NCBI GenBank assembly: GCA_027081275.1
Contig: JALWKV010000002.1
Coordinates: forward strand, 1,071-65,070
Direction of reading: 5' to 3'
From: Gammaproteobacteria bacterium
Lineage (GTDB): Bacteria > Pseudomonadota > Gammaproteobacteria > UWMA-0217
DNA: 64,000 nt
Below the pieces are notes generated by a model. The model was given only the letters and a program-made list of their open reading frames with translations, searched no databases and was not told the DNA's origin. Made by a program: the position numbers and the translations under genes. Below are positions 1 through 17,058 of the stretch, one piece after another; the first letter of the stretch is position 1, and every line of letters begins with the position of its first letter.

Positions 1-194
1 AGGCGGGTGTCGCGGGCAACGATGATCTGTTGCTCGCCGAGATCGCGCAGCGTGCTGCCGAAGCCGCACCCGATCAGGCGGACGGTCTCCTCGTCGAGGC
101 TGACATCGACGACGCCGCGAATGTCGTACTTGCGGAAGATGGTTGCGGCGATCGTCCCGGTCGCGGCCTCGCTACTGTTTGCCAGTATGACCAA
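1..194 (-). CDS. algC: phosphomannomutase/phosphoglucomutase, N-terminal fragment (gene runs off the window start)
   Basis: Minus-strand translation gives ...[20 protein letters not shown]..., the conserved PMM/PGM N-terminal motif. It sits downstream of dut as in Pseudomonas. The start codon is uncertain; no ATG is visible, so it may be TTG/CTG overlapping the 3' end of dut. Confidence 0.5.
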
Positions 195-627
195 AGCCCC
201 CTTCACCCCTCTCGCTGGCGACGAATTCGTCGACGATGTTGAAACTGGCCTGGATGACCGGAATGACCACCAGCTGGGCGATGCGGTCGCCGGGCTGGAT
301 CGTGAATGTCGTCTCACCGCGATTCCAGCAGGAGACGTAGATCTGCCCCTGGTAGTCGGAGTCGATCAGGCCGACCAGGTTGCCGAGCACGATGCCGTGC
401 TTGTGGCCCAGCCCCGAGCGCGGCAGGATCGTCGCCGCCAGCCCCGGATCGCCCAGATGGATGGCGATGCCGGTGGGAATCAGCTCGGTCTGGCCCGGCG
501 CCAGCGTTACCGGGCCGTCGCAGCAGGCACGCAGATCCATCCCCGCCGAGCCGGGCGTGGCGTAGTGGGGCAGCGGAAAGTCGCTGCCGATGCGCGGGTC
601 GATTATCTTGATGTCAATCTGGTGCAT
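172..627 (-). CDS. dut: dUTP diphosphatase
   Basis: [35 protein letters not shown]... aligns with Dut along its full length. The ATG at 627 is preferred over the GTG at 636 used in the ORF track. Confidence 0.9.
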
Positions 628-650
628 GGGCGCCACTTTTTCTCTTGATA

Positions 651-933
651 AGAGACTGTTGCAAACACCCTCTCCCCACCGGGGAGAGGGTTTGGGAGAG
701 GGGGTAAAGCACTGTTTTCATCCTCTCTCCACCCCTCTCCATCAGAGGTTGACGCAAAAGTGATAACTTTGCGGCAACCTCACGCAGCACAAGGATGTGC
801 TGCCAGAAACAACGACAATAAGTTGTTGTTTCTGTGAGAAAAGGAAGAATCGCACTTTTTCCTTTTCGTGTATCGCAAAATCCTGGACAAACTTTTGCGA
901 CACCCTCTCAAGGAAGAGGGAGTTTTTCGAGAC
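651..933. repeat. Mosaic intergenic repeat (modules A+B), hairpin-rich and MITE-like, flanked by the 9-bp direct repeat CTCTTGATA (642-650 and 934-942)
   Basis: It contains ccctctcccc..ggggagaggg hairpins and a gtcgcaaaag...cttttgcgac module. It is ~85-90% identical to segments at 3671-3830 and 46781-46935. Confidence 0.6.
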
Positions 934-2122
934 TCTCTTGATAGCGTTCGGCGATCAGTTCGATCAACTGCTGCGCGAGCCGCGTTTTCGTCGTTACCGG
1001 CAGGCTGCGGTGGCCGCCCGGCCAGAAGACCTCCAGCGAGTTGTCGTCGCGGTCGAAACCGAGCCCGTCGCCGACCGGGTTGGCGGCGATCAGGTCCAGC
1101 CGCTTGCGCTCGAGCTTGTCGCGCGCGTGCTCGGCCAGGTTTTCGGTCTCCGCCGCGAAGCCGACGCAGAACAGCGCCGGAAAGGCGGCGCTGACGTCGC
1201 CGAGTATGTCCGGGTTGCGCTCCAGCGTCAGCGTCAATGTTTCCGCCGTCTTCTTGATCTTCTGCCCGGCGGGCGTGGCGGGGCGATAGTCGCTGACCGC
1301 GGCCGTGGCGATGAATATGTCCTGCCCGGCCGCTTCGGCCATCGTGGCATTATGCATCTGCGCCGTCGTCTCAACGTCGATGCGTTTCACATCCGCTGGC
1401 GTCGGCTGCGCCGTCGGCCCGGCGATGATGGTAACGTCGGCGCCGGCGTCGATGGCGGCGCGGGCCAGCGCCATGCCCATCTTGCCCGAGCTGCGGTTGC
1501 TTAGAAAACGGACCGGGTCGATAGGCTCCCGTGTCGGTCCGAGGGTGATCAGCAGGCGTCTGCCGGCCAGCGCGCCGGAGGCAAAGAGAGCGGTGGCCGC
1601 GGCGGTGATCTCGGCCGGTTCGGCCATGCGGCCGGGGCCGGCCTCGCCGCAGGCCTGCTCGCCGCTGTCGGGGCCGACGAGCCGCACGCCCCGTTCGGTC
1701 AGCAGTTCGATGTTTCGCTGCGTTGCCGGATGCGTCCACATCTGCCGGTTCATCGCCGGCGCGGCGAGAATCGGCGCCGTGGTGGCGAGGCAGAGCGTGC
1801 TGAGCAGGTCGTCCGCCAGCCCCTGCGCCAGCCGCGCCAATGTGTTGGCGGAGGCCGGCGCGATGACCACCAGATCGGCCCAGCGCGCCAGCTCGATATG
1901 GCCCATTGCCGCTTCGTGGGCGGGGTCGAAGAGGGCACCGCGGACTGCGTGGCCGCTCAACGCCTGCAGCGTCATCGGCGTGATGAAGGCTTCGGCTGCG
2001 GCGGTCATGACGACGCGCACATCGGCGCCGGCGCGCTTCAGCAGCCGGGTCAGCTCCGCCGACTTGTAGGCGGCGATGCCGCCGGTGACGCCGAGCAGGA
2101 TCTTTCTCTGTTGCAGTGACAT
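908..2122 (-). CDS. coaBC: bifunctional phosphopantothenoylcysteine decarboxylase / phosphopantothenate-cysteine ligase
   Basis: [19 protein letters not shown]... flavoprotein N-terminal domain plus CoaB C-terminal domain, 404 aa. The last ~9 codons lie inside the repeat at 651-933. Confidence 0.9.
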
Positions 2123-2212
2123 GCCGGATTATCCCGGGTTGTGAATGCTTCAACTGATTGTACCGGCATCGGCAGGCTAATGTTGCGGCTGGAATCGGGA
2201 CGGAGGAGAGGG

Positions 2213-2884
2213 ATGTCCATTACCGACTGGCCGGCCGACGAGCGTCCGCGTGAAAAGCTGATCCAGCGCGGCGCGGCGGCGCTGTCCGATGCCGAGCTGC
2301 TGGCGATCTTTCTGCGCACCGGCACGCAGGGCAAGACCGCCGTCGATCTGGCGCGGGAGCTGCTCGATCGCTACGGTTCGCTGCGCGCGTTGCTGGAGGA
2401 TGACGCCGACGGCTTCTGCGCCAACCGTGGTCTGGGACTAGCCAAGTACGCCCAGTTGCAGGCGGTGCTGGAGATGGCCAAACGGCATCTGCAGGAGCGC
2501 CTGCGGCGGGGAGACGCCTTTACCGATCCGACCGGCGCCCGGCAGTTTCTGCAGCAGCAGTTGCGTCACCGCGATGTCGAGATCTTCGCCTGCCTCTTTC
2601 TCGATACCCGCCATCGCCTGATCGAATTCTCCGAGCTTTTCAGCGGCACCATCGACGGCGCCAGCGTGCATCCCCGGGAGGTGGTGAAAAAGGCGCTGGC
2701 GCTGAATGCAGCGGCGGTGATTCTGGCGCATAATCATCCTTCAGGCATTGCCGAACCGAGCGTCGCGGATCAGCGCATCACCCAGCGCCTCAAGGATGCG
2801 CTGGCGCTGGTCGACGTAAGGGTGCTCGACCATATCGTCGTCGGCGACGACTGCGTTTCGATGGCGGAGCGCGGCATGATCTGA
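2213..2884 (+). CDS. radC: RadC-family JAMM-like protein (UPF0758)
   Basis: The HNHPSG motif and a C-terminal JAMM domain are present. It is divergent from coaBC as in E. coli and Pseudomonas. The start is chosen at [16 protein letters not shown]. Confidence 0.8.
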
Positions 2885-2899
2885 CTCCGGAGGCTAGCG

Positions 2900-3490
2900 A
2901 TGAAACATCTCAAATATCTTGGCGCGGCGCTGTGCCTGCTTCCTGTTCTGCTGCATGCGGACTGGTACCCCTTTGGCGACGATGACAGCAGTTACGAATA
3001 CTGGGACGGCGCCACCTACGGCCAGGGCCAGGGCTATGGCGAGGGTTACGGTTATGGCTATGGTGACAGCCGCTATCGTGGCGACGGGCGTGGCCGCGGT
3101 GATTCGGCCTTTGGTTCCATGTCCGATGCGATGAGCGACTTCATGACCAACGGCGTCGGCGACATCTTTGGCGATATCGAGCTGGACTTCGAACTGAAGG
3201 CCCGCGCCCGCGGCAAGGGCAGCGGTTCCGGCAGGGCGCGTGGCAAGAGCGACTCCCGCGCCGAGTACTACAGCAGCGGCTCGGGCTACGGTGGCTATCT
3301 TGGGGAGTACTACGGCGAGGGCGCCGGAACGGGCTATGGCAGCGGCATCGAATACTACGACGGCGGCTGGGAGGGGTACGGCTACTCCGATGGTTACGAA
3401 GGCGGCTACTATCCCTATGGCGTCGATCCCGCCTGGGGTTATGGCTATGTTCCGCCGTATTACCAGTCATATGGTTACCTGCCGTACTAG
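2900..3490 (+). CDS. secreted Gly/Tyr-rich low-complexity protein (GYG / YGxG repeats), unknown function
   Basis: It has an N-terminal signal peptide (MKHLKYLGAALCLLPVLLHA), and about half of the mature protein is Gly or Tyr (GYGEGYGYGYGD, YGGYLGEYYGEGAGTGYGSG, a C-terminal YYQSYGYLPY). A GGAGG ribosome-binding site lies 7 nt upstream, and only 15 bp separate it from the radC stop. Confidence 0.6.
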   Translation: MKHLKYLGAALCLLPVLLHADWYPFGDDDSSYEYWDGATYGQGQGYGEGYGYGYGDSRYRGDGRGRGDSAFGSMSDAMSDFMTNGVGDIFGDIELDFELKARARGKGSGSGRARGKSDSRAEYYSSGSGYGGYLGEYYGEGAGTGYGSGIEYYDGGWEGYGYSDGYEGGYYPYGVDPAWGYGYVPPYYQSYGYLPY

Positions 3491-3667
3491 CCCGGATTTC
3501 TCACCACCCTTCTACTGCGACGTTCCAATGGCGCGCCCTGGCCGGTTTTCGCTCGGTCGGAGTGCTCGACATAGTGTCGGCTATGCCTGCGCGCTCCTCG
3601 GTCGTGAAAGCCACCCATGCCGCACCCTTGATCTGTCTCGCTACGAACGGTGGTGAGAAATGCGGGG
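3491..3667 (+). mobile_element. MITE-like element family C, copy 1 (~177 bp, terminal inverted repeats CCCGSATTTCTCACCACC)
   Basis: The terminal inverted repeats are cccggatttctcaccaccc ... ggtggtgagaaatgcgggg. It is ~95% identical to an inverted copy at 38733-38916. It begins immediately after the TAG stop of the upstream gene. Confidence 0.65.
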
Positions 3668-3670
3668 TAG

Positions 3671-3830
3671 AGGCTGTCGCAAAAGCGGTAGCTTTGCGGC
3701 AACCTCGCGCAGCACAGGGATGTGCTGCCAGAAACAACGACAATAAGTCGTTGTTTCTGTGAGAAAAGGGAAAATCGCACTTTTTTCGCGTGTCGCAAAC
3801 GTCCTGGATGGACTTTTGCGACACCCTCCA
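3671..3830. repeat. Repeat module B copy (gtcgcaaaag ... ctgccagaaacaacgacaataagtYgttgtttctg hairpin ... cttttgcgac)
   Basis: It is nearly identical to positions ~765-915 within the repeat at 651-933. Confidence 0.55.
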
Positions 3831-3859
3831 CTAGGGTGGGGCGCCCATATGACAGTCGG

Positions 3860-5275
<1,416 letters not shown>

Positions 5276-5463
5276 GTTCGTTCTCCCGGTTCAGGGCGCG
5301 GCGGAATGGCCGAACCTGACTGTTGGGATGCTAGCAGCTAAATGGTAGCGGGGGAGGGGCGCGACGGTCGTAAATGGCATCTGCTCGCAGAACGATAGTT
5401 CCGGCGGAACCTATCCGCCTGTTGCGAAGCGGGGGAGCGGCCGGGAGTAACCGTTCCGGCAGA

Positions 5464-6867
5464 TCAGAAGCGATACGGCATGCGCAGGCCGAAGGTGAAG
5501 TCGGGTGCGTCGTCGGTCAGGCCGATACCCACGGTCCCAGCGATCGACAGGTGTTTGCCAAGGCTCTGGGTGACGCCGGTGTTGAACATGGCCGAGTTGG
5601 CGTCGCTGCCGGTTACGCTGGTCCAGCCACTGCCGGCGGTGCGGGTGCGGGTCTTGCTGGTCAGCTTGTGGCTGAAAGAGAGGCTCAGGCTGGTGTTTTC
5701 GTTCATCGCGATCGCCATGCCGAGGCCATAGCTCACCGAGTCGCCGAGGTCGATATCGCCGGCGGTGCGTGTCGCCGGGTCGGAATCGACGTCGGAGAAT
5801 GACTCCTTGCGGGTGTAGCCGATGCCGAAGTTGCCGAACAGCACAGCCGGGTCGCTGACCCTGACGAACGAGACGCCGGTATTGAGCGACCAGACGCCGC
5901 TGCCGGTCGGCAGGTTGGCTGGGACCGAGAAGGTCGTTACACCGTCCTGATCCTTTTCGATGATCTGAACGGGAACCCCGTACGGGTGCTTGCCGGTCGG
6001 TGCGGTGATGTCGATGTTCCAGACCCAGTCGAGCTTGCGCGCCGTTGGGAGCAAGCGGTAGCTCATGCCGAAGGAGGCGTCCCCGAGCGCCGGTTGCCGG
6101 GTGACGTCGGTTTCGCTGGTTGCCGTTGCGACGCCTCCGACACCGCCCTTGGCGTAGGTCGTGCTGCGGTAGACCAGTGGCGTCGTCAGGTTCAGTACCA
6201 TGCGGTTCGACACGCCATAGCGCGCTGTCAGCGAATAGGTGAGCGTGTCCGAAGCAACGCCCTCGACAGCCAGATTGCCGAGAAAGATGGCGTCGAGCGC
6301 GAGAAAGCCGTTCAGCGTCAGCTGGGTACGGTCATAGCGGCTGTAGTCGAGCGCCGACTCCAGCGTGAAGGTTTGGTTGAAAGAGGGGTGCTCCGCGTCG
6401 ATCAGATCTTCGACATTGCGAGAAATCGCCGCCACATCTCTCGCCTTTTTCCGATCGGTGCCGACCTGCTTGCCCGATGATGGGGGCGATGCTGGAGTCG
6501 TGTGCTGGCCTGAAGTCTGTTGGGAGCTCGGGGCTGCGGTGGATCGATGAGCATCGCTCCCGGTGAGCGCCTTCAGTTTGAGGTCGAGTGCCCGCAGTTT
6601 TCTCAGGTCGTTGTTGTATTGCCTTCGCAATAACAGCATTTCCTGTTCCAGTTGTTGTCGCGTGACGGTCGGTCCATCGTTCTTGTTTTGAGTATTGTCC
6701 TTGGATGTTGCCGATGAAACGGTTGCAGCTGTCCTCCCTGTTGAAAGCCCCCATTCCCTTTGCGAAGCTGATGAGCTGGTATCGGCCGCAAAAGAAGACG
6801 TGGCGACAATGGCGATTAGTATGGCCGCAGCGGCAGCCTTTGGGCCGAAATCCTTTTCAACTATCAT
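5464..6867 (-). CDS. fapF: FapF-like outer-membrane amyloid secretion pore
   Basis: It has a signal peptide, a coiled-coil segment (LEQEMLLLRRQYNNDLRKLRALDLKLKAL), a Ser/Thr/Pro/Ala-rich linker and a beta-barrel ending in ...MPYRF (C-terminal Phe). It is the last gene of the operon, as in Pseudomonas fap. Confidence 0.8.
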   Translation of the reverse strand: MIVEKDFGPKAAAAAILIAIVATSSFAADTSSSASQREWGLSTGRTAATVSSATSKDNTQNKNDGPTVTRQQLEQEMLLLRRQYNNDLRKLRALDLKLKALTGSDAHRSTAAPSSQQTSGQHTTPASPPSSGKQVGTDRKKARDVAAISRNVEDLIDAEHPSFNQTFTLESALDYSRYDRTQLTLNGFLALDAIFLGNLAVEGVASDTLTYSLTARYGVSNRMVLNLTTPLVYRSTTYAKGGVGGVATATSETDVTRQPALGDASFGMSYRLLPTARKLDWVWNIDITAPTGKHPYGVPVQIIEKDQDGVTTFSVPANLPTGSGVWSLNTGVSFVRVSDPAVLFGNFGIGYTRKESFSDVDSDPATRTAGDIDLGDSVSYGLGMAIAMNENTSLSLSFSHKLTSKTRTRTAGSGWTSVTGSDANSAMFNTGVTQSLGKHLSIAGTVGIGLTDDAPDFTFGLRMPYRF

Positions 6868-6921
6868 GAGTACATCCTGTTTTGGGAAGTGCTTGGCGGA
6901 AAAGGCGCTGCCAAGCGGGGG

Positions 6922-7713
6922 CTACAATCCTCGCAAACCGCTCAATGAAACGCCAAGAATCCTGCTCAGATTGGTCGACTCGTTGCCCGGTTTCATCAGA
7001 ATTGAGAGCTGCATACGGTTCGATATGGTGTGCGCATCGCCCAGCGTGCGGATCGACTGATGCGCGCCGCGACCCGTTCCGCCGATGACGGCGCCGCGAA
7101 TCGACTGCTGGACGACGCCTTGTCCCGCAATGGAGAGCGTTACCATCACGCCGCGCTCGTCGAGCCCAGAGCTGGCGGTAGCACCGGTGTTGTCGGTCAT
7201 GGTGCGGGAGACCGCTTCGGTCCCGCTGTCCCGCGACTCGGGCATGCTGTCGAGCATTCTGATGCCGAGCGTGTTCGAGGCCTGATTGAAATCACCGGCC
7301 ACCTGAATGGTCTGTCCCAGACCGGTCACGTTGTCGATGCCGCCCGGTTCGATGTGCCGGTCGGTGGGCGCCGCGCGTGTCGGAGTGCGGCCGCTGGATA
7401 CGATGCTCACGGTTGGCGTGAAGCTGACGGTGGGCGTGCCGCCGCCGGAAAAGTCCAGCCCGAGCCTGGCGCCACCCGATAGCTGCTGTCCCTGCGCCGT
7501 TTGCCACCTGCTCGCCATTTCCACGCCGAAATAGAGTACGCGATGGGTATCGACGACATATTTCCCCCTGATCTGCGCCATTTCCGGGTTGGTCAGCAGT
7601 GAGATGCCATTGCCCACGCTGCCATCGCCGGGCGCCGCCAGCAGCGCCGCTGGCGCCGCGGGCATCAATATCCCGGCGAGGAGATGGGCGATCAACCTCT
7701 TTCTCGTTTTCAT
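6922..7713 (-). CDS. fapE: FapE-like secreted protein
   Basis: It has a signal peptide, is 263 aa, and sits between the C39 peptidase gene and the fapF-like gene, the canonical fapE position. Any sequence similarity could not be checked. Confidence 0.55.
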   Translation of the reverse strand: MKTRKRLIAHLLAGILMPAAPAALLAAPGDGSVGNGISLLTNPEMAQIRGKYVVDTHRVLYFGVEMASRWQTAQGQQLSGGARLGLDFSGGGTPTVSFTPTVSIVSSGRTPTRAAPTDRHIEPGGIDNVTGLGQTIQVAGDFNQASNTLGIRMLDSMPESRDSGTEAVSRTMTDNTGATASSGLDERGVMVTLSIAGQGVVQQSIRGAVIGGTGRGAHQSIRTLGDAHTISNRMQLSILMKPGNESTNLSRILGVSLSGLRGL

Positions 7714-7725
7714 TTGTTGTGTTCC

Positions 7726-8430
7726 TCAGAAAAGGTCCGCATGAGTAAAACCGAAATCCAGCAGTTCCGAATCTGGTATCGCGGCCTGTTTTTCCAGCCA
7801 TTGATTGGCGCTGAGCCTGAACGGCATTTTCAGCAGTGCGGTGTTGCGATCGAAGCCGCTGCCGATGACAGCGAAAATCACCCGGTTGGCCCAGGCTTTG
7901 CGGAATGCTTCGAGATCCATCACCTTGTTGCCCAGTACCGGGTCGGCGAGAAACGCCTCGCCATCATGGATGCGTTTCAGAACGGAGAAATGCCGGTAGC
8001 CATCGATGTCCACCAGGACGATGACCGGGATCTTCAGTCTCTTCAGACGCTCCTCGGTAAGGCGATAACCGCGCCCGCGCAGCCCCAGTGATCCGACGTA
8101 GCGCTTCATGTCGAGCATCGAGAATCCTTTGCGTCGCACGATTTCTGCGTCGCCGGCATTGAGCATGCCCTGCATGATGACTTCTTCGGTCGCATCCATG
8201 CCGTAGCCGTACTTCAGAATCGTGGCCAGTGCCGCCGCGCCGCAGCTGTAGTCCGTTTGTTGCCTGATCACATTGGCGTATTTTGCTTCCTGCATGCTGA
8301 CGACGCGGCTGGTGTAGAGCCCGCCGAAAGCGGTTACGCCCGAGAACTGGACGTTTCCGGCGCCGGCGGTTGTCCCCGACAGGTACATCGCCGATGCCAG
8401 TAGTGCTGTGACGAAAGACTTGCGTTGCAT
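7726..8430 (-). CDS. fapD: FapD-like periplasmic C39-family cysteine peptidase
   Basis: It has a signal peptide and the peptidase C39 catalytic region ...QQTDYSCGAAALATILKYGYG... Confidence 0.8.
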   Translation of the reverse strand: MQRKSFVTALLASAMYLSGTTAGAGNVQFSGVTAFGGLYTSRVVSMQEAKYANVIRQQTDYSCGAAALATILKYGYGMDATEEVIMQGMLNAGDAEIVRRKGFSMLDMKRYVGSLGLRGRGYRLTEERLKRLKIPVIVLVDIDGYRHFSVLKRIHDGEAFLADPVLGNKVMDLEAFRKAWANRVIFAVIGSGFDRNTALLKMPFRLSANQWLEKQAAIPDSELLDFGFTHADLF

Positions 8431-8513
8431 GAGACCGGCCTCGCTGACTGGAATGTGTGTTTGGATGCCGGGGCCGAAGGCGTCGGCCCCGGTGCGCTTG
8501 ACGCGATGCTCCG

Positions 8514-10625
8514 TCAGTGGCCGGTGGGCTTGCTGGCCGTGCTGGAGGCGATCGCCAGGCTGTTGGCCTGCATGTTGCCGTTGCCGGATGACATGTTCAC
8601 GCCGATGTTGCCGCTGGCGCCGGACAGCGCATTGCCGCCCAGTACGACCCGGTTGACGGCGTTGTCGACGAGGATGTGCGTCTTGTAGGTAACGGTGCCC
8701 GAGACTTCCGTGGCCAGATTGATGTCAGACATCTCTTCGAAGCTCAGCGTGCCATTTTCGCTGCCGTTGCTGGAGGCGTTGACACTGCCGTTGATCTTGC
8801 CCGATTCACTCCCCGCGTACTTGCCGGAGGAGCTGGCCTGGGTCGAACCTGCGGCCTGGCCCTGGTAGCTTCCTTCCGCCTTGGCCTTCAGCTCGCCTTT
8901 TTCGTTGCCGCGATACTCGCCGGCCTCTCGTCCCTTGTACACACCTTGGGAGACTGCAGCGGTTTTACCCGCTTCCTCCCCCTGGTAGTAGCCTTCGTTC
9001 GTGGTTCTGAGCTTGCCCTGCTCGGTCCCCGCGAACTTGCCGGACTCCTTGCCCTCGTAGATGCCCTTGATTGTGGCCGAGGTGCTGCCTTCTTCCCTGC
9101 CTCGATAACGACCCTGGCTCGTCGCCCGGGTCTCGCCACTGGCGTCGCCGCGGAATTTGCCGCTTTCGCTGCCTTCATACTCGCCGACAGAGAGCGCTGC
9201 CGTGACGCCCACTTCGCCACCGCTGTAGCTGCCACTGCTGGTGCCGCTGTATGCGCCGGTCTCGCCACCGGTGATCTGTCCTGAAGCGTTGCCTTCATAG
9301 CTGCCGTTGGATGTCCCCTCGTAGGTGCCTTTTTCTTTCATCACGGTGATGCCGACGACAGGCAGCTTGTGTTTTCCTTTGTAGTTGCCGCTCTGCTCGG
9401 CACTTGTGGTGCCGGATTCGGTGCCGTTGTAGGAGGCCGCTATTTCGCCGTTGTAGAAGCCGCTGGTCTGGCTCTGGGTCGTTCCCGCCTCGACGCCGAT
9501 GTAACCACCGATCGATGCGGCTTCCGTGGTGCCTTCCTGCTCGCCTTCGTAGGTGCCGTTGATGGTGCCCTTGTAGCTGCCCGCGATGTGCGCCTGCGTA
9601 TTGCCGCGTGCCACGCCCTCGTAGTTGCCTGTCGACTTGGCGGCGGTCTTGCCGTAGCTCTCACCGTTGTATTCGCCTTGCAGTCTTCCAGCGTATTCGC
9701 CGGTGCTGTGCCCCGCGGTTCGTCCGCCGGTCTCACCCGCGTAGATGCCCAGCGAGATCCCTGCTGTCGCACCCTCCGCCTGACCGTTGTAGCGGCCCGC
9801 TTCCTGGCCCTGGTACGCGCCGGCGATGTTGGCGGTGGTTGTACCTTTCTCGGCGCCCTTGTAGCTGCCTGTCAGCTGCGCCGACGTGGCGCCGCTCGCG
9901 CTGCCGCTGTAGTTGGCGTTCACGCTGCCGTTGATATTCGCGTTGGTCTGACCGGCGTAGCTGCCCTTGCCAACGCCCCTGGAGGTACCGTTCGATTCGC
10001 CCTTGAGTTCGATCGTGGTGGAATCGGAGACGACGTCGTAGCGACCTTCGGTGGTGACCGAGTTGCCGATTGACTCCTGATGGACGCCGGCGGAAGCCGC
10101 CACTGGTCCGGTTGAGGAGACCGATACGGCAAAATCGTTCTTTTGCAGATTGAAATTGCCGGAAGCGATGTTGGCGCCGACGTTGCCGCTAACGTTGCTG
10201 ATGGCGTAACCATCGAGCCATGCCTCATTGCGACTGCCCGAGCTGGAAAACCTGTTGCCGTTGATGCGCTGCTCGACGAAAACCTCGGCCGTCGGGTCGC
10301 CGAAGACAAAGGACGCATCGCTGTCGGACGTGGCGATGGCAGCGGCGTTGGCCTGCATGTTGTTGTCGCCCGAGGAAATGTTCACGCCCATGTTGCCGGA
10401 GGTATCCTTCATAGCGTTCTCGTTGAGCGACGACTGGTTGTCGGCTGACTTGACGACAATGGCGTTGCCTTCGGCTGCCTGCCTATCGGAGACCGATGCC
10501 ATTGCCTGGGCCGCGACGGTATTGCCGTTTTGTGCCGGCGTCGTTTCGGTCGCAAGCAGCGGGGTGCTCGTGATGCATGCGGTGACTGCGACACAGATTG
10601 CAGTTTTCTTGTATTGGATTTTCAT
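8514..10625 (-). CDS. fapC: FapC-like amyloid major subunit with a greatly expanded repetitive linker (703 aa)
   Basis: After the signal peptide there are two N-terminal Fap repeats (SGNMGVNISSGDNNMQANAAAIA and SGNVGANIASGNFNLQKNDFAVS) and one C-terminal Fap repeat (SGNIGVNMSSGNGNMQANSLAIAS). They are separated by ~450 aa of 11-residue GxYxGxxxGxx repeats. The ATG at 10625 has a GGGAGAAGAGAG ribosome-binding site, whereas the ORF-track start at 10643 is TTG. Confidence 0.8.
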   Translation of the reverse strand: MKIQYKKTAICVAVTACITSTPLLATETTPAQNGNTVAAQAMASVSDRQAAEGNAIVVKSADNQSSLNENAMKDTSGNMGVNISSGDNNMQANAAAIATSDSDASFVFGDPTAEVFVEQRINGNRFSSSGSRNEAWLDGYAISNVSGNVGANIASGNFNLQKNDFAVSVSSTGPVAASAGVHQESIGNSVTTEGRYDVVSDSTTIELKGESNGTSRGVGKGSYAGQTNANINGSVNANYSGSASGATSAQLTGSYKGAEKGTTTANIAGAYQGQEAGRYNGQAEGATAGISLGIYAGETGGRTAGHSTGEYAGRLQGEYNGESYGKTAAKSTGNYEGVARGNTQAHIAGSYKGTINGTYEGEQEGTTEAASIGGYIGVEAGTTQSQTSGFYNGEIAASYNGTESGTTSAEQSGNYKGKHKLPVVGITVMKEKGTYEGTSNGSYEGNASGQITGGETGAYSGTSSGSYSGGEVGVTAALSVGEYEGSESGKFRGDASGETRATSQGRYRGREEGSTSATIKGIYEGKESGKFAGTEQGKLRTTNEGYYQGEEAGKTAAVSQGVYKGREAGEYRGNEKGELKAKAEGSYQGQAAGSTQASSSGKYAGSESGKINGSVNASSNGSENGTLSFEEMSDINLATEVSGTVTYKTHILVDNAVNRVVLGGNALSGASGNIGVNMSSGNGNMQANSLAIASSTASKPTGH

Positions 10626-10654
10626 AAGACTCTCTTCTCCCAAGTGGATTGATG

Positions 10655-11314
10655 TTATGGAGTGGTTTGCATGAACACGCGGTTTTGCGTGACGTTGTGC
10701 ATCCCTGCTGCCTGGTTGAGCTGAAGCACGCCCTTGACGCCTCGGAAGGCCGTCTTGTCGACATGTGCGGTGCGAATGCCGCCGGATTTCCTGTCATTGG
10801 ACCGTCCGGATGCAGCGGCGACATCCAGTGAAGTCTGCGCCAGCAGATCATCGGTCAGCTCCGCCGGCAGTCTTTCATGTGAAATGGTGATGGCATTGCT
10901 TTCCAGATTGCCGGCGCCGCTGGCCTGGTTGATCGACAGTAGACCAACCGTGTTTTGAAATGCGTTTTCGCGGATGCTGGTGGTCAAGGCGTCGGCGGAT
11001 GTTGCGCCGGCCAGTGATGAAACCTGTCTGATGCTGGCTGTGGCCGGCCCCGAGCCGGCGCCTTCATTGATCGCGCGGACGTTGGCCTGCAGGTTGAAAT
11101 CTCCTGCTGCCTGGTTGATCCCGACGATCCCCTTGACATTACTGAGTGCGTTGTTGGTGATGATGGCGTCGCTGAGATGGCCGAAGTCTTCGGTAGCCGT
11201 CAGCGGCTGGGTCGTGCCGGCGAGCGCCAGCCCTATTGCCGAGGCGGTGAAGAAACGTCGAAACGGATATTCCGAAAATGGTATCCGCCTGTTCTGACTG
11301 GTCTTGCTGGACAT
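10655..11314 (-). CDS. fapB: FapB-like amyloid minor subunit / nucleator
   Basis: It has a signal peptide plus three Fap repeats (GIVGINQAAGDFNLQANVRAIN, VGLLSINQASGAGNLESNAITI, KGVLQLNQAAGMHNVTQNRVFM) matching the GxxGxNQAAGxxNxQxN consensus. It is the first gene of the operon, with a GGGAGGA ribosome-binding site. Confidence 0.75.
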   Translation of the reverse strand: MSSKTSQNRRIPFSEYPFRRFFTASAIGLALAGTTQPLTATEDFGHLSDAIITNNALSNVKGIVGINQAAGDFNLQANVRAINEGAGSGPATASIRQVSSLAGATSADALTTSIRENAFQNTVGLLSINQASGAGNLESNAITISHERLPAELTDDLLAQTSLDVAAASGRSNDRKSGGIRTAHVDKTAFRGVKGVLQLNQAAGMHNVTQNRVFMQTTP

Positions 11315-11343
11315 AGATCCTCCCGTTTGCTGCGAGGGGTAAT

Positions 11344-11358
11344 GCAGAAGGTGTGCCA
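11344..11358 (-). promoter_or_regulatory. sigma-54 (-24/-12) promoter of the fap operon
   Basis: The minus strand reads cTGGCACaccttcTGCat: a perfect TGGCAC -24 box, GG-N10-GC spacing and a TGC -12 element. It ends ~30 nt upstream of the fapB ATG. Confidence 0.5.
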
Positions 11359-11418
11359 GCGTCGTAACAGGCTGTAAACCCAGGTGTTTCTGTTGTCGTA
11401 GGGCCCCGGCTCGGGGGT

Positions 11419-11508
11419 GATCTGTTCAGATCTTTTACAGCGCTTGAGCCGCTTCCCAGCCATTCCGCGGTTTTCACGGAAAAAGCGGCTGTTCAGGATC
11501 TGAACAGC
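11419..11508. promoter_or_regulatory. Two related palindromic sites (GATCTG-TT-CAGATC at 11419-11432; GCTGTTCAG-GAT-CTGAACAGC at 11488-11508), candidate enhancer for the sigma-54 activator
   Basis: The two perfect dyads are centred ~70 bp apart, 75-145 bp upstream of the -24 box. This is the typical geometry for an enhancer-binding-protein site. The divergent lipoprotein gene shares this region. Confidence 0.4.
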
Positions 11509-11809
11509 TGGGGACGCGGCAGGTGGCTGGCGCTTGGGGAAGAAGAGAGGTTGGATCTGTGGGAGCGTACTGTACGGGACGCAACGGCGGATGGCCGCGA
11601 GAAGCGCGGACTACATGATGAAGTGAAGAGTTTCACAGAATCGTCGGAGAATGGCGATCCTTCTTATGATTGCTGAACTTTGCGCAAAATCCCCCTGTCG
11701 GATTGGTACCGATGGTTGCCGCGCCGGGAATTGCCCGGGGTTGTGGCCGTGTCGGATCCGGTACTTCAATCGCAAATGAGCTTCGCTCAAACGACTCGGG
11801 GTAGACACC

Positions 11810-12841
11810 ATGCGCGCCAGATACGCCACGCTTTTTCTTTCCAGCCTGCTGTTTCTTGCAGCCTGTGACCCCGAAGAAACAGGCTACAAGGACTGGTCGT
11901 TTCTGACCGCGGACAAGAGCGGGGTGCTTGGCGCACCACTGATATCGGGCATGGCCTACAGCACATCGACCAATCACGGGCTGACCGATGACAAGGGCCG
12001 CTTCAACTACCGCGACGGCCAGCAGATCGGTTTCTCCATCGGCGACATCAATCTGCCGCGCGTGACCGCCAAGCCGCTGATCCGGCTGGTGGACTTCGGT
12101 GGCGGGCAGGAGAACCAGGTGGTGCGCAATATTCGCCGTCTGCTGTGGACGCTGGACACCGACGGCAATCCGGCCAACGGCATCACCATCGACGCGATCG
12201 CGCGGGAAAGGGCCAAGTCCGCCCTGGTCGACTTCAACATGCCCACCGATGCCGCTTTCGAGGCGAATGTGGCCAACTATCTGGCGCGGGTGAAACCGGC
12301 CAATCCGGTGCTGGTCTCGCTCGATGCCGCAGCGCCGGCAGCGGGCGGCACGACACCGGCGGCGAGTACAGGTGGACATGGGGGCGGCGCGGGCCAGATC
12401 CCGGTCGATCCGCCCGCGCCGGCAACATCTTCCGAGTCGACATCCGGGACGCCGACGGCGCTCGAGCCTCCGCGCCGGCTGACGGTCAACGCGGCTGCCA
12501 TCGGCATGAATATCGTCTCCGAGGATGGCGCCGGTTATGTCTTTGAAGCGCAGGCCGGCAAGACGTACACGATCACCGTGGTGCCGAAGACGCCGACCGA
12601 TGATCCCGAGGTATTCGTCTTCCGCAACTTGACCGACATGCGCAATTACTGGAGCGTGGAAGCGATCGGCGGGGTGGACTCGCCGGAAGCGACGGCATTG
12701 CGGGTCGGCATTTCGACCAGCGAGCCGGGCATGACGGAAACGATCTCGTTTACGGCCGATCGTGGCGGCGACTACTTCATCATGATCGTCGATACCTCGA
12801 ATCGCGGGAATGCGACGATCACGGTGACCGAGCAGCCGTAG
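11810..12841 (+). CDS. lipoprotein of unknown function (lipobox LFLAAC), Ala/Gly/Pro/Thr-rich linker, C-terminal beta-rich domain
   Basis: It has a signal peptide with a lipobox cysteine and coherent codon usage. It is divergent from the fap operon. No family was recognised. Confidence 0.6.
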   Translation: MRARYATLFLSSLLFLAACDPEETGYKDWSFLTADKSGVLGAPLISGMAYSTSTNHGLTDDKGRFNYRDGQQIGFSIGDINLPRVTAKPLIRLVDFGGGQENQVVRNIRRLLWTLDTDGNPANGITIDAIARERAKSALVDFNMPTDAAFEANVANYLARVKPANPVLVSLDAAAPAAGGTTPAASTGGHGGGAGQIPVDPPAPATSSESTSGTPTALEPPRRLTVNAAAIGMNIVSEDGAGYVFEAQAGKTYTITVVPKTPTDDPEVFVFRNLTDMRNYWSVEAIGGVDSPEATALRVGISTSEPGMTETISFTADRGGDYFIMIVDTSNRGNATITVTEQP

Positions 12842-12945
12842 GGCGACACAAACAATGGGGGAAAGGGACCATCCTCCGCCAGACGATTGCCTGAATCCGA
12901 GGTTTCGATGCCGGTGCAGTGCCGTAGCCAGGCGCGGAGGTCTGC

Positions 12946-13488
12946 CTACGGATTCCGGTGGCGGTTCTCCGCATGTTGCCGCATCAGCTTGACGTAGTGT
13001 GCGGCGGAGTAGCGCAGGTAGTTCTTTTCCTCGTCGCCAAGCGGTCGCGCGCGCCGTACCGGCGAGCCGAGCCAGAGGTAGCCGCCTTCCAGCCTTTTTC
13101 CCGGCGGCACGAGCGAGCCGGCGCCGAGCATGACGCCCGGCTCCAGCGTCGCCTTGTCGAGGACGATGCTGCCCATCCCGATCAGGCAGCCGTCGCCGAT
13201 GGTGCAGGCATGCAGCGTCGCATTGTGGCCCACGGTCACGTCGTTTCCGATCACGAGCGGGGAGCCGCCGGGGGAGTAGTGGCTGTCATGGGTGACGTGG
13301 AGCACCGAGCCATCCTGGATATTGGTGCGCACGCCTATGTCGATGCGGTGAATGTCGCCGCGGATGACGGTCTGCGGCCAGACGGAGCTTTCCTCGCCGA
13401 TCGTGACCCGGCCGATTACGGTGGCCTGCGGGTCGATCCAGGCAGAGGCGGCAATCCGCGGTGTCCATTGCTGGTGGCGTCTGATCAT
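12946..13488 (-). CDS. gamma-class carbonic anhydrase-like hexapeptide-repeat protein (YrdA/PaaY family)
   Basis: It has a left-handed beta-helix hexapeptide pattern (IGDGCLIGMGSIVLDKATLEPGVMLGAGSLV) and is 180 aa. Confidence 0.8.
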   Translation of the reverse strand: MIRRHQQWTPRIAASAWIDPQATVIGRVTIGEESSVWPQTVIRGDIHRIDIGVRTNIQDGSVLHVTHDSHYSPGGSPLVIGNDVTVGHNATLHACTIGDGCLIGMGSIVLDKATLEPGVMLGAGSLVPPGKRLEGGYLWLGSPVRRARPLGDEEKNYLRYSAAHYVKLMRQHAENRHRNP

Positions 13489-13689
13489 CTTTCGAGATTC
13501 CCGGTGGTTTGTCTGTCAGTATAGAGGCTGAGTCGGGGAGTTCATATCGGCGAAAGAGGCGGGTTACCGGTTTTTTCTCCGCCCTGTCCACCGCAGGATC
13601 AATTGACTCCTTGTCTACCGCCTCCGCCCCGATCCAGTGGATTCAGGTAGAATGCGGCGGTCGATATTGCCGCTGTTCCGCGTTCCGCC

Positions 13690-14577
13690 ATGCAACCATT
13701 GCACCCCCCGATGAATGTATTCGATCGCCTTCAGGCCTATGCGCAGCTGATCCGCTTCGATCGCCCGATCGGGACGCTGCTGCTGCTGTGGCCGACCTTG
13801 TGGGCATTGTGGATTGCGGCGGACGGCATTCCCGATCCGACGGTGCTGGTGGTCTTCTGCCTTGGCGTTTTTCTGATGCGTTCGGCCGGCTGCGCCATCA
13901 ACGACTATGCGGATCGCGAGATCGATCCGCATGTGGAGCGCACCCGTGACCGTCCGCTGGCGGCCGGGCGCATATCGCCGGCCGAGGCCCTCGGCGTCTT
14001 CGTCGTGCTGTCGCTGCTGGCATTTTCGCTGTTGATCTTTCTCAATGACGTGACGCGGTGGATGTCGGTCGGCGCGCTGCTGCTGGCCGCGAGCTACCCC
14101 TTCATGAAGCGCTTTCACCATCTGCCGCAGATCCATCTCGGCATCGCCTTCGCCTGGGCGGTGCCAATGGCCTATACCGCGCAGACCGGCGCCTTCCCCG
14201 ATCGTGCTGGCTGGATGCTGTTCATCGCCGCGGTGCTCTGGACCACGGCCTACGACACGATGTATGCGATGGCGGATCGGGACGAGGATCTGCAGATCGG
14301 CGTCAAGTCGACCGCGATCCTCTTTGGCGACGCGGATCGCGTCATCATTGGCCTGCTCCAGGCGATGATGCTGTTCGCGCTCTATCTGGTCGGCAGGGAG
14401 GAGGGGCTGCGCTGGCCTTGGTATATCGGCCTCGCCGCCGCCGCGCTCTTCAGCCTCTACCAGCAGTTTCTTATCCGTCAGCGGCGACCCCGGGACTGCT
14501 TTCGCGCCTTCCTCAACAACAACTATCTGGGCATGACGCTGTTTCTGGCGCTGGTGGTGGATATGGCGCTGTACTGA
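13690..14577 (+). CDS. ubiA: 4-hydroxybenzoate octaprenyltransferase
   Basis: UbiA prenyltransferase motifs [26 protein letters not shown] are present in a polytopic membrane protein. Confidence 0.9.
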
Positions 14578-14714
14578 GAAGCGCGTCGTCTGTAAAACCT
14601 TGTTGTGAAAGCGTTTGCCCGGGAACCCTGGCCGACACGCGGTGTCGAAAACAGTAATGCTTCCCGTTCCCGGCGAAGGCCGGGCATCAGCCCGTCCCTT
14701 TTCGGACTGTTTTC

Positions 14715-15770
14715 ATGTCGAAACGATTTCCCTACCTGATCGCCGCGGCCCGTTGTCTTCTTCAAGCTGTTCCCGTTCATCGCCTCATGCGCCCTCTCTA
14801 CGGTGGAATCGGCACCATTTTCATGCTGCATCGTGTGCGGCCGCTGAGCGCGGAACCCCGTCTGCCTGACAATGCCCGGTTGGAAGTCTCGCCGGCGTTT
14901 CTGGCGTCGCTTGTCGATTTTGTTGTCGATACCGGTTTCGATGTGGTGTCGCTCGACGAGGCGCATGCGCGACTGGTTGGAAAATCTGACGGTAGACGTT
15001 TTGTCTGCTTTACCTTCGATGATGGTTACGCGGACAACTATGAATATGCTTACCCCGTTTTTCGTGAACGTGGCCTGCCGTTCGCGGTGTACGTTGCCTC
15101 GGGGTACATGAGCCGTTCCAGCATATTGTGGCACTGCATGCTGGAAAAGCTGCTGTTGCGCCATGATGAGATCCGCTACGAGCTGGATGGCGTCTCCCGA
15201 GTGGAGCGGGCGGTGACCATGGAGGAGAAGGAGGCGCTCTACGACCGTCTCTGCAACATCGTTATGGGGCTGCCGTCGGCGCGCTGGCCGGCGCTGTTCG
15301 ATTCGCTGTTCGACGATACGGGCATTCGGCCCGAGCAGTTCCATGCGGAGGTGATGGACTGGGATCAGGTGACGGCGCTTGCGCGGGATCCGCTGGTGAC
15401 CATCGGGGCGCACACGGTCAATCACTACAACCTGGCGCTACTGGAGGAGGCGCAGGCGCATTGGGAGATCGCCGAGTCGAAACGGATTCTCGAGCAGCGT
15501 ACCGGGCGCCCGGTCAGGCATTTCGCCTATCCATTCGGGCTCGCCGCCCATGCGGGTGAAAGGGAGTTTAGACTGGTCGAGTCCTGCGGTTTCGACACGG
15601 CGACGACGACCCGTGAAGGCAATCTGTTCCCCGCCCACCGTGGGCATCTCCACTGCCTGCCGCGGATCGAGGTGACGGGGCGGCATCAGGATGTGGCTTT
15701 CGTTGACATGCGCCTGAGTGGCGTCGTCGCCCTGTGGCGGTATGGCCCGCAGCGGGTGGTCACGGCCTAG
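14715..15770 (+). CDS. polysaccharide deacetylase family protein (NodB homology, CE4)
   Basis: FTFDDGY ... HTVNHYNL ... YPFG motifs of the CE4 NodB domain are present. Confidence 0.75.
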   Translation: MSKRFPYLIAAARCLLQAVPVHRLMRPLYGGIGTIFMLHRVRPLSAEPRLPDNARLEVSPAFLASLVDFVVDTGFDVVSLDEAHARLVGKSDGRRFVCFTFDDGYADNYEYAYPVFRERGLPFAVYVASGYMSRSSILWHCMLEKLLLRHDEIRYELDGVSRVERAVTMEEKEALYDRLCNIVMGLPSARWPALFDSLFDDTGIRPEQFHAEVMDWDQVTALARDPLVTIGAHTVNHYNLALLEEAQAHWEIAESKRILEQRTGRPVRHFAYPFGLAAHAGEREFRLVESCGFDTATTTREGNLFPAHRGHLHCLPRIEVTGRHQDVAFVDMRLSGVVALWRYGPQRVVTA

Positions 15771-15997
15771 ATCGTGCTTTTTGCCGGGGTGTCTCGTCCA
15801 GCCAGTCTGAGCGGGTTTCAACGTTTTGTTACGTTGGCCAAGCGCCATTGCGCCGGCGATGAAAAGGACGGATCGCCTCGCCGATGGTTCGGGCGCGGGC
15901 TCCGTGGCAGGCGATGAAGGGAGCAGAATCCGTTGACCCGTTCCTGGTCTGGCTGTATGATTCCGCCTCTTTTTTTCGATGAGTGTGTGGAGTCCTT

Positions 15998-16309
15998 ATG
16001 TACGCGGTAATCGCTACTGGTGGGAAACAGTACAGAGTATCCGAAGGTGACGTGATCCGTATCGAGACGTTGCCAGCGGAAGAGAGCGAGGAGATTACCT
16101 TCGACAAGGTGCTGCTCGTGGCCGACGGCGATGACGTCAACATTGGCGCCCCCTATGTCGAGGGTGGCAAGGTCAGCGCCATTGTCAATGGGCATGGCCG
16201 TGGCAAGAAGATCGAGATCATCAAGTTCAAGCGCCGGAAGCACCATCGCAAGCAGATGGGGCATCGCCAGAATTTCACCGAAGTGAAGATCACTGGCATC
16301 AGCGTTTGA
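15998..16309 (+). CDS. rplU: 50S ribosomal protein L21
   Basis: [23 protein letters not shown]... The ATG at 15998 is preferred over the track start. Confidence 0.9.
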
Positions 16310-16331
16310 TCCCGGCCGGTTTAGTTTCAGG

Positions 16332-16534
16332 GTAACTACTCAGCTCGTTCGGAAATACATCCGTGACTACTCAGGTTGCCCCTGGAATCCGACAGTTCAA
16401 GGCAGAATCGCACCGCCATCCATGGCTCCTTGCGAAATACAGCCCTTCCATGGGCATAAATGTGAGTTTACAAAGGTAAATGAGCATTTTCGAACGCAGA
16501 AATGGCGGATTTCAGGGGTGAGCTGAGTGGTCAC
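16332..16534 (+). mobile_element. MITE-like element family D, copy 1 (~31-bp terminal inverted repeats GTAACTRCTCAGMTYRCCYCTGARATCCGSC)
   Basis: It is inserted between rplU and rpmA. Its reverse complement matches 16882-17058 almost base for base. It carries a partial duplication of its own terminal inverted repeat at the 5' end. Confidence 0.65.
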
Positions 16535-16554
16535 GTTTCAAGAGGAATTAGCAG

Positions 16555-16818
16555 ATGGCACACAAGAAAGCTGGCGGCAGTACGCGCAACGGCCGCGATT
16601 CGATTTCCAAGCGCCTTGGCGTCAAGCGCTTTGGCGGTGAGGTTGTCAGGGCAGGCAACATTCTGGTGCGGCAGCGCGGCACCAAGTTCCACGCTGGCGA
16701 GAATGTCGGCTGTGGCAAGGACTACACGCTGTTTGCCAAGGTCGACGGCAAGGTCGTCTTCCGCACCAAGGGCATCAAGAACCGCAAGTATGTGAGTGTG
16801 GAGCCGCTGGCCTCCTGA
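16555..16818 (+). CDS. rpmA: 50S ribosomal protein L27
   Basis: [28 protein letters not shown]... An AAGAGGA ribosome-binding site is retained immediately after the end of the MITE. Confidence 0.95.
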
Positions 16819-16852
16819 TCACTGACGACCGAAAGGTTTCTCCTCACCAGCA

Positions 16853-16879
16853 AAGCCCCGCCGAGTGCGGGGCTTTTGC
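16853..16879 (+). terminator. rho-independent terminator after rpmA
   Basis: A GCCCCGC-cgagt-GCGGGGC hairpin is followed by TTTTG. Confidence 0.6.
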
Positions 16880-16881
16880 GT

Positions 16882-17058
16882 TGTAACTGCTCAGCTCACC
16901 TCTGAAATCCGCCATTTCTGCGTTCGAAAATGCTCATTTACCTTTGTAAACTCACATTTATGCCCATGGAAGGGCTGTATTTCGCAAGGAGCCATGGATG
17001 GCGGTGCGATTCTGCCCTGAACTGACGGATTTCAGAGGCAATCTGAGCAGTTGCAGGC
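16882..17058 (-). mobile_element. MITE-like element family D, copy 2 (inverted relative to copy 1)
   Basis: It is the reverse complement of 16359-16534 and lies between the rpmA terminator and obg. Confidence 0.65.

Follow-up and report, generated by a model that had tools for sequence, protein, structure and literature searches.

The closest described relative of the system treated here is the fap amyloid operon of Pseudomonas fluorescens PF07. In this strain, 5' rapid amplification of cDNA ends (5'-RACE) mapped the fapA start to a -24/-12 promoter, and fapA-E were down-regulated in an rpoN mutant. When brfA, an RpoN-dependent Fis-family regulator gene that is adjacent and convergent to fapF, was deleted, both fap transcription and the biofilm matrix were lost (Guo et al. 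2022, PMC9207406). As summarised in a 2026 paper (PMC13101488) and in a 2026 SBW25 preprint, BrfA is a cyclic di-GMP (c-di-GMP)-sensing enhancer-binding protein (EBP) that directly regulates fapA (Guo et al. 2024, Microbiol Res 287:127864). Here we describe the fap locus in a stretch of 64,000 nucleotides (contig JALWKV010000002.1; "the window" is this whole stretch) from an uncultured gammaproteobacterium. A first reading made from the sequence alone (the sequence-only reading) had proposed that its fap operon is driven by a sigma-54 promoter with two palindromic upstream sites, and that the cognate activator is encoded after fapF.

The same reading had considered sigma-54 and EBP control of fap not to be the established picture. 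This has been overtaken by the literature (PMC9207406; PMC13101488, citing Guo 2024). RpoN/BrfA control of fap is already known from P. fluorescens (2022, 2024), and the window is a further, slightly rearranged example. The variations found here are the lack of fapA, an activator gene on the same strand as fap, and a clade-specific operator. From the sequence comparisons described below, we consider it very probable that fapBCDEF is controlled by a sigma-54 promoter, two upstream sites and the adjacent BrfA-type activator.

Promoter and upstream sites of the fap operon

The promoter and the genes that follow it are located as given here.

11358-11343, minus strand: sigma-54 (-24/-12) promoter TGGCACaccttCTGCA, a sequence match, predicted start at about 11332
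10655-11314, minus strand: fapB; NCBIfam FapB, E = 2.9e-28; PF27129 (FapBC) in the Logan gene call
8514-10643, minus strand: fapC; NCBIfam FapC, E = 6e-45, both protein ends aligned to the model
7726-8430, minus strand: fapD (C39 peptidase); Pfam Peptidase_C39; NCBIfam C39_FapD, E = 2.7e-75
6922-7713, minus strand: fapE; NCBIfam FapE, E = 8.8e-22
5464-6867, minus strand: fapF (outer-membrane amyloid transporter); NCBIfam FapF, E = 9e-114

The gene identities given in the sequence-only reading hold: all five proteins match the NCBIfam models FapB to FapF, yet below the equivalog cut-offs, and the order fapBCDEF is conserved in synteny. A fapA gene in first position is absent; no open reading frame (ORF) lies between the promoter and fapB, and the whole clade to which the locus belongs is without fapA. 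Loss of fapA has been described as the commonest variant of the fap operon (PMC6173800).

The minus strand reads TGGCAC (11358-11353), five nucleotides and CTGC (11347-11344), so that the GG-N10-GC spacing is exact. The motif and its position were thus read correctly from the sequence alone, including the distance to fapB, as 30 nt lie between the -12 GC and the ATG (11314). TGGCACaccttCTGCA agrees with 10 of the 11 consensus positions of TGGCAC-N5-TTGCW. The leader predicted from the promoter position is about 18 nt long, with its start at about 11332, and a Shine-Dalgarno sequence, GGGAGG, stands ahead of the ATG. As in P. fluorescens, the -24/-12 core precedes the first fap gene (GGCACAnCTTCTGC here, GGCACAGCTTCTGC in the Pseudomonas type), but here it stands directly before fapB. 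Promoters of Pseudomonas-type fapA genes read CGGCACAGCTTCTGCT, with a core almost identical to that of the window. Where a fapA-sized gene intervenes, the distance from the promoter to fapB is about 500-600 nt, as against about 30 nt in the fapA-less clade.

The exact FapF sequence is on record in one Logan assembly (L001). Nine relatives (L002-L010), which are uncultured Thiotrichales or Gammaproteobacteria metagenome-assembled genomes (MAGs) and metagenomes, have a FapF with 63-74% identity. In these, fapBCDEF is followed by a VpsR-domain activator gene on the same strand. The -24/-12 element is kept at the same place in four of the four clade relatives compared (L003, L004, L008, L009), and the genes flanking the loci all differ. 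Further afield, among 76 other fap operons (from Xanthomonadales, Guyparkeria, Hydrogenophilus and others), 74 have TGGCAC-N5-nTGC upstream; matches to at least 10 of the 11 consensus positions have a background frequency of 0.03 per kb and strand.

These numbers bear on the possibility that the -24/-12 match and the neighbouring activator are coincidental, with fap transcribed from a sigma-70 or RpoS promoter and the activator serving other genes. TGGCAC-N5-YTGCW matches once in 64 kb with 0.16 matches expected, and a single match to such a pattern somewhere in the window has a 16% chance of arising at random. However, this match is correctly placed and oriented, and it is kept in the 74 of 76 independent fap loci mentioned above. 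EBP genes are linked to fap across about 80 genomes in three arrangements, and the operator described below is confined to the fap promoter. A scan of 11250-11850 detected no sigma-70-like hexamer pair, and the Pseudomonas experiments favour sigma-54 and BrfA (PMC9207406). We therefore regard a coincidence as very unlikely.

Upstream of the promoter lie two predicted activator sites (upstream activator sites, UAS) and two dyads that overlap or enclose them.

11439-11423, minus strand: proximal predicted activator site (UAS 1) TGTAAAagatcTGAACA, TGT-N11-ACA, 17 bp, conserved in the clade
11506-11490, minus strand: distal predicted activator site (UAS 2) TGTTCAgatccTGAACA, TGT-N11-ACA, 17 bp, a perfect palindrome
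11419-11432, both strands: dyad 1, GATCTGnnCAGATC / GATCTGttCAGATC (GATCTG-tt-CAGATC), a perfect palindrome overlapping UAS 1
11488-11508, both strands: dyad 2, GCTGTTCAGgatCTGAACAGC (GCTGTTCAG-gat-CTGAACAGC), a perfect palindrome enclosing UAS 2

To define the operator, the promoters of five members of the clade (the window and L003, L004, L008 and L009) were aligned. The proximal site is located at -81 or -82 from TGGCAC in all five loci and always reads TGTAAA-N5-TGAACA. A distal TGT-N11-ACA lies at -146 to -149 in L004, L008 and L009 and is shifted to -310 in L003; in the relatives it reads TGTTCA-N5-TTTACA, which is an inverted copy of the proximal site. The two sites of the window can be aligned base for base (GCTGTTCAGATCCTGAACAG versus GCTGTAAAAGATCTGAACAG). 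Their centres are at about -99 (UAS 1) and -166 (UAS 2) from the predicted start, 67 bp apart. The pattern TGTWMA-N5-TKWACA has two matches in 64 kb, both at the fap promoter, where 0.01 would be expected. In the clade loci, the refined operator pattern was likewise found at fap promoters only.

The sequence-only reading had taken the two dyads, rather than these sites, as the activator binding sites, and had put them 75 and 145 bp upstream. Both dyads are present and are perfect palindromes. The distances were approximate, as the dyad centres are about 68 and 140 bp from TGGCAC, or 81 and 154 bp from the -12 GC. As to their role, the proposal is correct in part: dyad 2 encloses the distal site, but dyad 1 merely overlaps the proximal one and is not conserved. 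We rejected dyad 1 as a binding site since its symmetry is absent in the relatives, which read AATCTGAACACTTC, AAGCTGAACAAATG and TCGTGAACAATGT. Palindromes with 6-bp arms occur 3.6 times per kb in the window, and are so frequent that dyad 1 alone is not significant. For 9-bp arms, 3.3 palindromes per 64 kb were found in shuffled sequences and about 14 distinct ones in the window, which are mostly terminator hairpins.

This raises the question whether dyad 2 (11508-11488 on the minus strand) is itself the intrinsic terminator of an upstream minus-strand gene and no activator site. The terminator scan does report a hairpin there, whose 9-bp stem includes five G-C pairs and closes a loop of 3 nt, with CGCTTTTTCC after it; this speaks against reading the dyad as an activator site. 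In addition, a minus-strand ORF of 248 aa (12379-11633) ends 125 nt upstream of dyad 2. However, gene calling on the identical contig gave a divergent plus-strand gene of 343 aa (11810-12841) which overlaps this ORF, and the 248-aa ORF has no family matches. No minus-strand transcript is thus expected at dyad 2. At the same distance, the relatives carry TGTTCAtttgcTTTACA or TGTTTAcgctcTATACA, in which TGT-N11-ACA is kept but no hairpin is possible and no T-run follows. What is conserved is therefore a protein-binding signature and not an RNA structure, and we consider a terminator in place of an activator site very unlikely.

Which protein would bind these sites is a separate question. The promoter might be sigma-54-dependent while TGT-N11-ACA is bound by another regulator, such as a repressor or a global factor, and the adjacent activator acts elsewhere or from solution. 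TGT...ACA dyads do resemble the sites of several unrelated regulator families. A CRP-type site, for example, is TGTGA-N6-TCACA. The sites of the window have a spacing of N11 and not the N10 that CRP implies, and their half-sites are TGTTCA or TGTAAA, not TGTGA. Moreover, the sequence of the operator varies from one activator clade to the next (see below) while its two positions stay constant, and enhancer-binding proteins classically have their sites at about -100 and -165. We thus find another binding protein very unlikely and take the two sites as putative targets of the adjacent activator. The layout resembles that of NtrC-type enhancers (glnAp2, nifH), in which two dyad-symmetric sites lie 100-170 bp upstream of the -24/-12 element, about six helical turns apart. 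The comparison does not extend to the signal input: the receiver of the activator is degenerate here, and no partner kinase gene is adjacent. A candidate site resembling those of integration host factor (IHF) lies between the activator sites and the promoter; L004 has a clear version of it (AATCAATGAGTTG), the window a weak one.

A feature peculiar to the window is the presence of GATC in both operators, with two copies in the proximal one (in the 11419-11432 region) and one in the distal one (11496-11499). The relatives are without GATC in their operators. Activator binding could be methylation-sensitive if the organism has a Dam methylase.

The activator encoded after fapF

The gene after fapF and the spacer that separates the two are as follows.

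5275-3860, minus strand: BrfA-type sigma-54 enhancer-binding protein, 471 aa, with VpsR-like receiver, AAA+, lid and HTH_8
5276-5463, minus strand: fapF-activator spacer, 188 nt, fold z = -0.62, unremarkable

The activator gene lies 188 bp past fapF, on the same strand as fap. Its description as a sigma-54 activator with GAFTGA and a degenerate receiver agrees with the Pfam domains, the translation and the alignment to VpsR. The AAA+ domain (PF00158, E = 3.2e-69) has the Walker A sequence GESGTGKE and an intact GAFTGA within EKGAFTGA, and no other protein in the window contains GAFTGA. The N-terminus matches PF20161 (VpsR, E = 3.6e-14) and the C-terminus HTH_8 (E = 1.9e-10). When the N-terminus was compared with VpsR of Vibrio cholerae (PDB 7v2b; E = 1.8e-16), Asp59 was found to occupy the place of the phospho-acceptor; as the acidic Mg-binding pair has no counterpart, the receiver is degenerate. 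There is no partner histidine kinase gene adjacent to the activator gene; together with the degenerate receiver, this makes control by phosphorylation unlikely.

To relate this protein to BrfA, we made use of the primers for the brfA deletion in PF07 (Table S1 of PMC9207406), which encode BrfA residues 22-27 (LLPGLR) and 406-411 (LCDVLN). An exact 20-mer from the 3' part of brfA was searched in a metagenome collection and hit eight contigs, seven of which are fap loci with a convergent activator gene for 441 aa after fapF. One of these proteins (L088:2211-3536, 441 aa) carries both primer-derived peptides precisely at the expected residues, LLPGLR at 22-27 and LCDVLN at 406-411. This BrfA orthologue has the same Pfam architecture as the activator of the window (PF20161, E = 6.6e-8; HTH_8), and an alignment of the two over 380 aa gives 47% identity (E = 4e-113). 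When 197 VpsR-domain activators were placed in a neighbour-joining tree, the clade of the window, the BrfA orthologues and Hydrogenophilus fall into one clade of 124 members; the fap-linked proteins of Xanthomonadales are sister to it, and Guyparkeria is basal. About 110 database homologues are interleaved in this tree. Four of these, from different lineages, were sampled, and all four adjoin fap or fap-like clusters. On this sequence evidence there is one fap-linked activator family, and the protein of the window is a member of it.

In its place directly after fapF and in its domains (VpsR-like receiver, AAA+ with GAFTGA, lid, HTH_8), the activator is like that of P. fluorescens. However, its gene has the same strand as fap, and may be co-transcribed, whereas brfA is convergent, and the protein has 471 aa here as against 441 aa in Pseudomonas.

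Two better-known regulators of biofilm matrix genes can be compared with it. VpsR has the same type of degenerate receiver (PF20161), with the Asp kept and the acidic Mg pair absent, and both proteins are EBP-like biofilm matrix regulators, a role that is predicted in the case of the window. VpsR binds c-di-GMP; it is without the residues for engaging sigma-54 and activates sigma-70 RNA polymerase (PMC6158489). In contrast, the protein of the window keeps GAFTGA beside a -24/-12 promoter. Because of the intact GAFTGA, we do not class it as a sigma-70 activator of the VpsR type in spite of the common N-terminal domain; unlike VpsR, it is expected to work as a genuine sigma-54 activator. FleQ of Pseudomonas aeruginosa, a c-di-GMP-responsive EBP of matrix genes, has a very similar AAA+ core (E ~1e-71), with GESGTGKEvvARNlH in FleQ and GESGTGKElaARNiH here. 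Still, FleQ differs from the activator of the window in its FleQ-type N-terminal domain, in working with FleN, in being inhibited by c-di-GMP at flagellar sigma-54 promoters, and in its sigma-70-dependent control of pel. The fap-linked activators form a family separate from FleQ, with an N-terminus of the VpsR type.

When the spacer between fapF and the activator gene was scanned, neither a terminator nor a sigma-70-like promoter was found, and a further -24/-12 element or operator was likewise absent. The activator may thus be co-transcribed with fap, which would create positive feedback.

With these components, the locus could work as follows. fapBCDEF would be transcribed from a -24/-12 promoter that is unable to open alone. 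Dimers of the BrfA-type activator would bind the two 17-bp TGT-N11-ACA sites through the C-terminal Fis-type helix-turn-helix, form an ATPase ring, and contact the promoter-bound sigma-54 holoenzyme via DNA looping, and the GAFTGA loop together with ATP hydrolysis would then open the promoter. The VpsR-like degenerate receiver is the likely control module, with c-di-GMP as its putative input by homology to BrfA. Since the activator gene has the same strand, transcription from the fap promoter might read through into it and give rise to positive feedback.

Some points count against this model. The 64-kb window encodes no protein with an RpoN box, so that the model has to assume RpoN elsewhere in the genome. 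Unlike the circuit of P. fluorescens, that of the present host, an uncultured gammaproteobacterium of Thiotrichales-like affinity, is predicted from sequence. The neighbour-joining tree is based on simple distances and has no support values. With regard to the signal, the residues ARN after the Walker A motif are those of FleQ, but the BrfA orthologue has ART at this place, and ARN is thus no reliable marker for c-di-GMP. By homology to BrfA alone, the input of the activator is most likely c-di-GMP rather than phosphorylation. Nevertheless, the conservation of promoter, site and activator lends strong comparative support to the cognate sigma-54/enhancer layout put forward in the sequence-only reading. 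The model is also concrete, since it names a promoter, the coordinates of two operators and a candidate cognate activator in an uncultured organism.

fap loci in other genomes

Genome contigs were subjected to a profile scan with an alignment of FapF, and the 80 loci most similar to the query were collected; none of them is from Pseudomonas. In a tblastn search of these loci, an activator of the same type was found to adjoin fap in essentially every locus with enough flanking sequence, so that activator and fap are linked in about 75-80 loci. Three gene arrangements occur. The activator gene is convergent after fapF in most Xanthomonadales, as is brfA in Pseudomonas; it is located upstream in Guyparkeria, Hydrogenophilus and some Stenotrophomonas; and in the clade of the window it follows fapF on the same strand. 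A tblastn search of plasmids with FapF did not detect a Pseudomonas locus; the best match was from Aeromonas caviae. This hit (PLSDB NZ_AP026896.1, FapF homologue with 38% identity) is on a 4.9-Mb replicon, evidently a chromosome filed as a plasmid.

An unbiased 7-mer enrichment in 72 other fap promoters yielded TGTAACA, which is present in 48 of the 72 loci (about 97-fold enriched), as well as GTAACAC and TGATACA (about 63-fold). Half-sites of the form TG-W-W-ACA have 42 matches at -70 to -100 and 86 matches at -150 to -200 from the -24 element, with 0.24 expected per bin. In Pseudomonas-type promoters, TGA(A/T)ACA is found at -70, -151 and -225. The sites of the window, at -81 and -148 from TGGCAC, fit this family-wide layout of two positions; in the window as in Pseudomonas, TG-W-(W)-ACA half-sites thus recur at about 70-80 and 150 bp ahead of the -24 element. 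The operators themselves differ, being TGT-N11-ACA with the half-sites TGAACA and TGTAAA here and TGA(A/T)ACA there. The exact TGT-N11-ACA operator of the clade is absent from 71 more distant fap promoters; what they share with it is a looser half-site. Sorted by activator clade, the half-sites are TGAACA/TGTAAA (window), TGA(A/T)ACA (Pseudomonas-type) and TGTAACA (Xanthomonadales). An operator that differs with the activator clade but keeps the same two positions is what a cognate pair that co-evolves should show.

The RpoN/BrfA circuit reported for Pseudomonas thus appears to be common to most fap loci, which extends the established picture but does not change it. We lean, with some reserve, towards a wider proposal: sigma-54 and a BrfA-type activator that acts through a two-module enhancer may be the ancestral and near-universal control of fap and fap-like loci across Gamma- and Betaproteobacteria (Xanthomonadales, Halomonadaceae, Guyparkeria, Hydrogenophilus, Acidithiobacillus and Thiotrichales-like MAGs). 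Operators would have co-evolved with their activators, and in the clade of the window the activator gene would have moved onto the fap strand, where read-through could lead, by positive feedback, to a switch-like commitment to amyloid production. With the TG-W-W-ACA half-site and the two-position layout, fap regulation could be predicted for biofilm formers such as Stenotrophomonas and Rhodanobacter, and the link of fap regulation to c-di-GMP in such organisms is probably predictable likewise.

Several loci from the survey deserve separate mention. In a scaffold (L096; ENA ERZ23491050 scaffold_530, 1-17000), whose lineage is sister to the activator clade of the window, a BrfA-type activator gene lies between a complete pel operon (PelB..PelD..PelG) and fapB-fapC-fapD-fapE; one activator may serve two matrix systems here. 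In Billgrantia kenyensis (L098; JACEFT010000002, 11400-19000), the fap operon has its own convergent BrfA-type activator. Beyond fap, this locus encodes a REC-GerE regulator resembling VpsT, together with a second sigma-54 activator that has no VpsR domain, a combination that recalls the VpsR/VpsT pair of Vibrio. Acidithiobacillus ferrivorans SS3 (L097; CP002985, 10000-21400) has a BrfA-type activator near a reduced fap-like cluster, made up of small ORFs and the genes for a C39 peptidase and for a 350-aa protein with a FapBC domain. It is flanked by genes for a GAF-GGDEF-EAL protein and a PilZ-containing cellulose synthase, which give contextual support for a c-di-GMP link. Finally, a contig labelled Nocardiopsis yanglingensis strain A18 (L087; JBJNRH010000003.1) contains a fap locus with the promoter TGGCACGGTTGATGCG. 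Its promoter, gene order and upstream activator match loci of the Stenotrophomonas maltophilia group (L070, L073, L076, L078, L084), and the actinomycete label looks like the result of contamination or of a mislabelled assembly.

Further features of the locus

The gene on the other side of the fap promoter region is the following.

11810-12841, plus strand: divergent gene, 343 aa, no Pfam family; weak SslE/AcfD-lipoprotein match, E = 9e-5

It has a 495-bp intergenic region in common with the fap enhancer and is not conserved beside fap in the relatives. A search with Rfam found no RNA family in the 64-kb window.

The start of fapC was placed at 10625 by the gene caller (703 aa), and the ORF is open from 10643. 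FapC thus has 703-709 aa, and that of the clade relatives has 702 aa, whereas the NCBIfam FapC model has 321 positions; compared with Pseudomonas, FapC is three-fold longer here. The extra length consists of imperfect repeats rich in Gly, Ser, Thr and Tyr (...GxYxGxxxG...) between conserved N- and C-terminal repeats. Immediately past fapC, which encodes the major subunit, the spacer to fapD (stop 8514, start 8430) contains a hairpin of 10 bp that is rich in G+C and has no U-tract, CCGGGGCCGAcgccuUCGGCCCCGG (8469-8491, minus strand); the spacer has a fold of -31.4 kcal/mol (z = -1.7). By terminating transcription in part or by stabilising the mRNA, this hairpin could set a high ratio of FapC to FapDEF.

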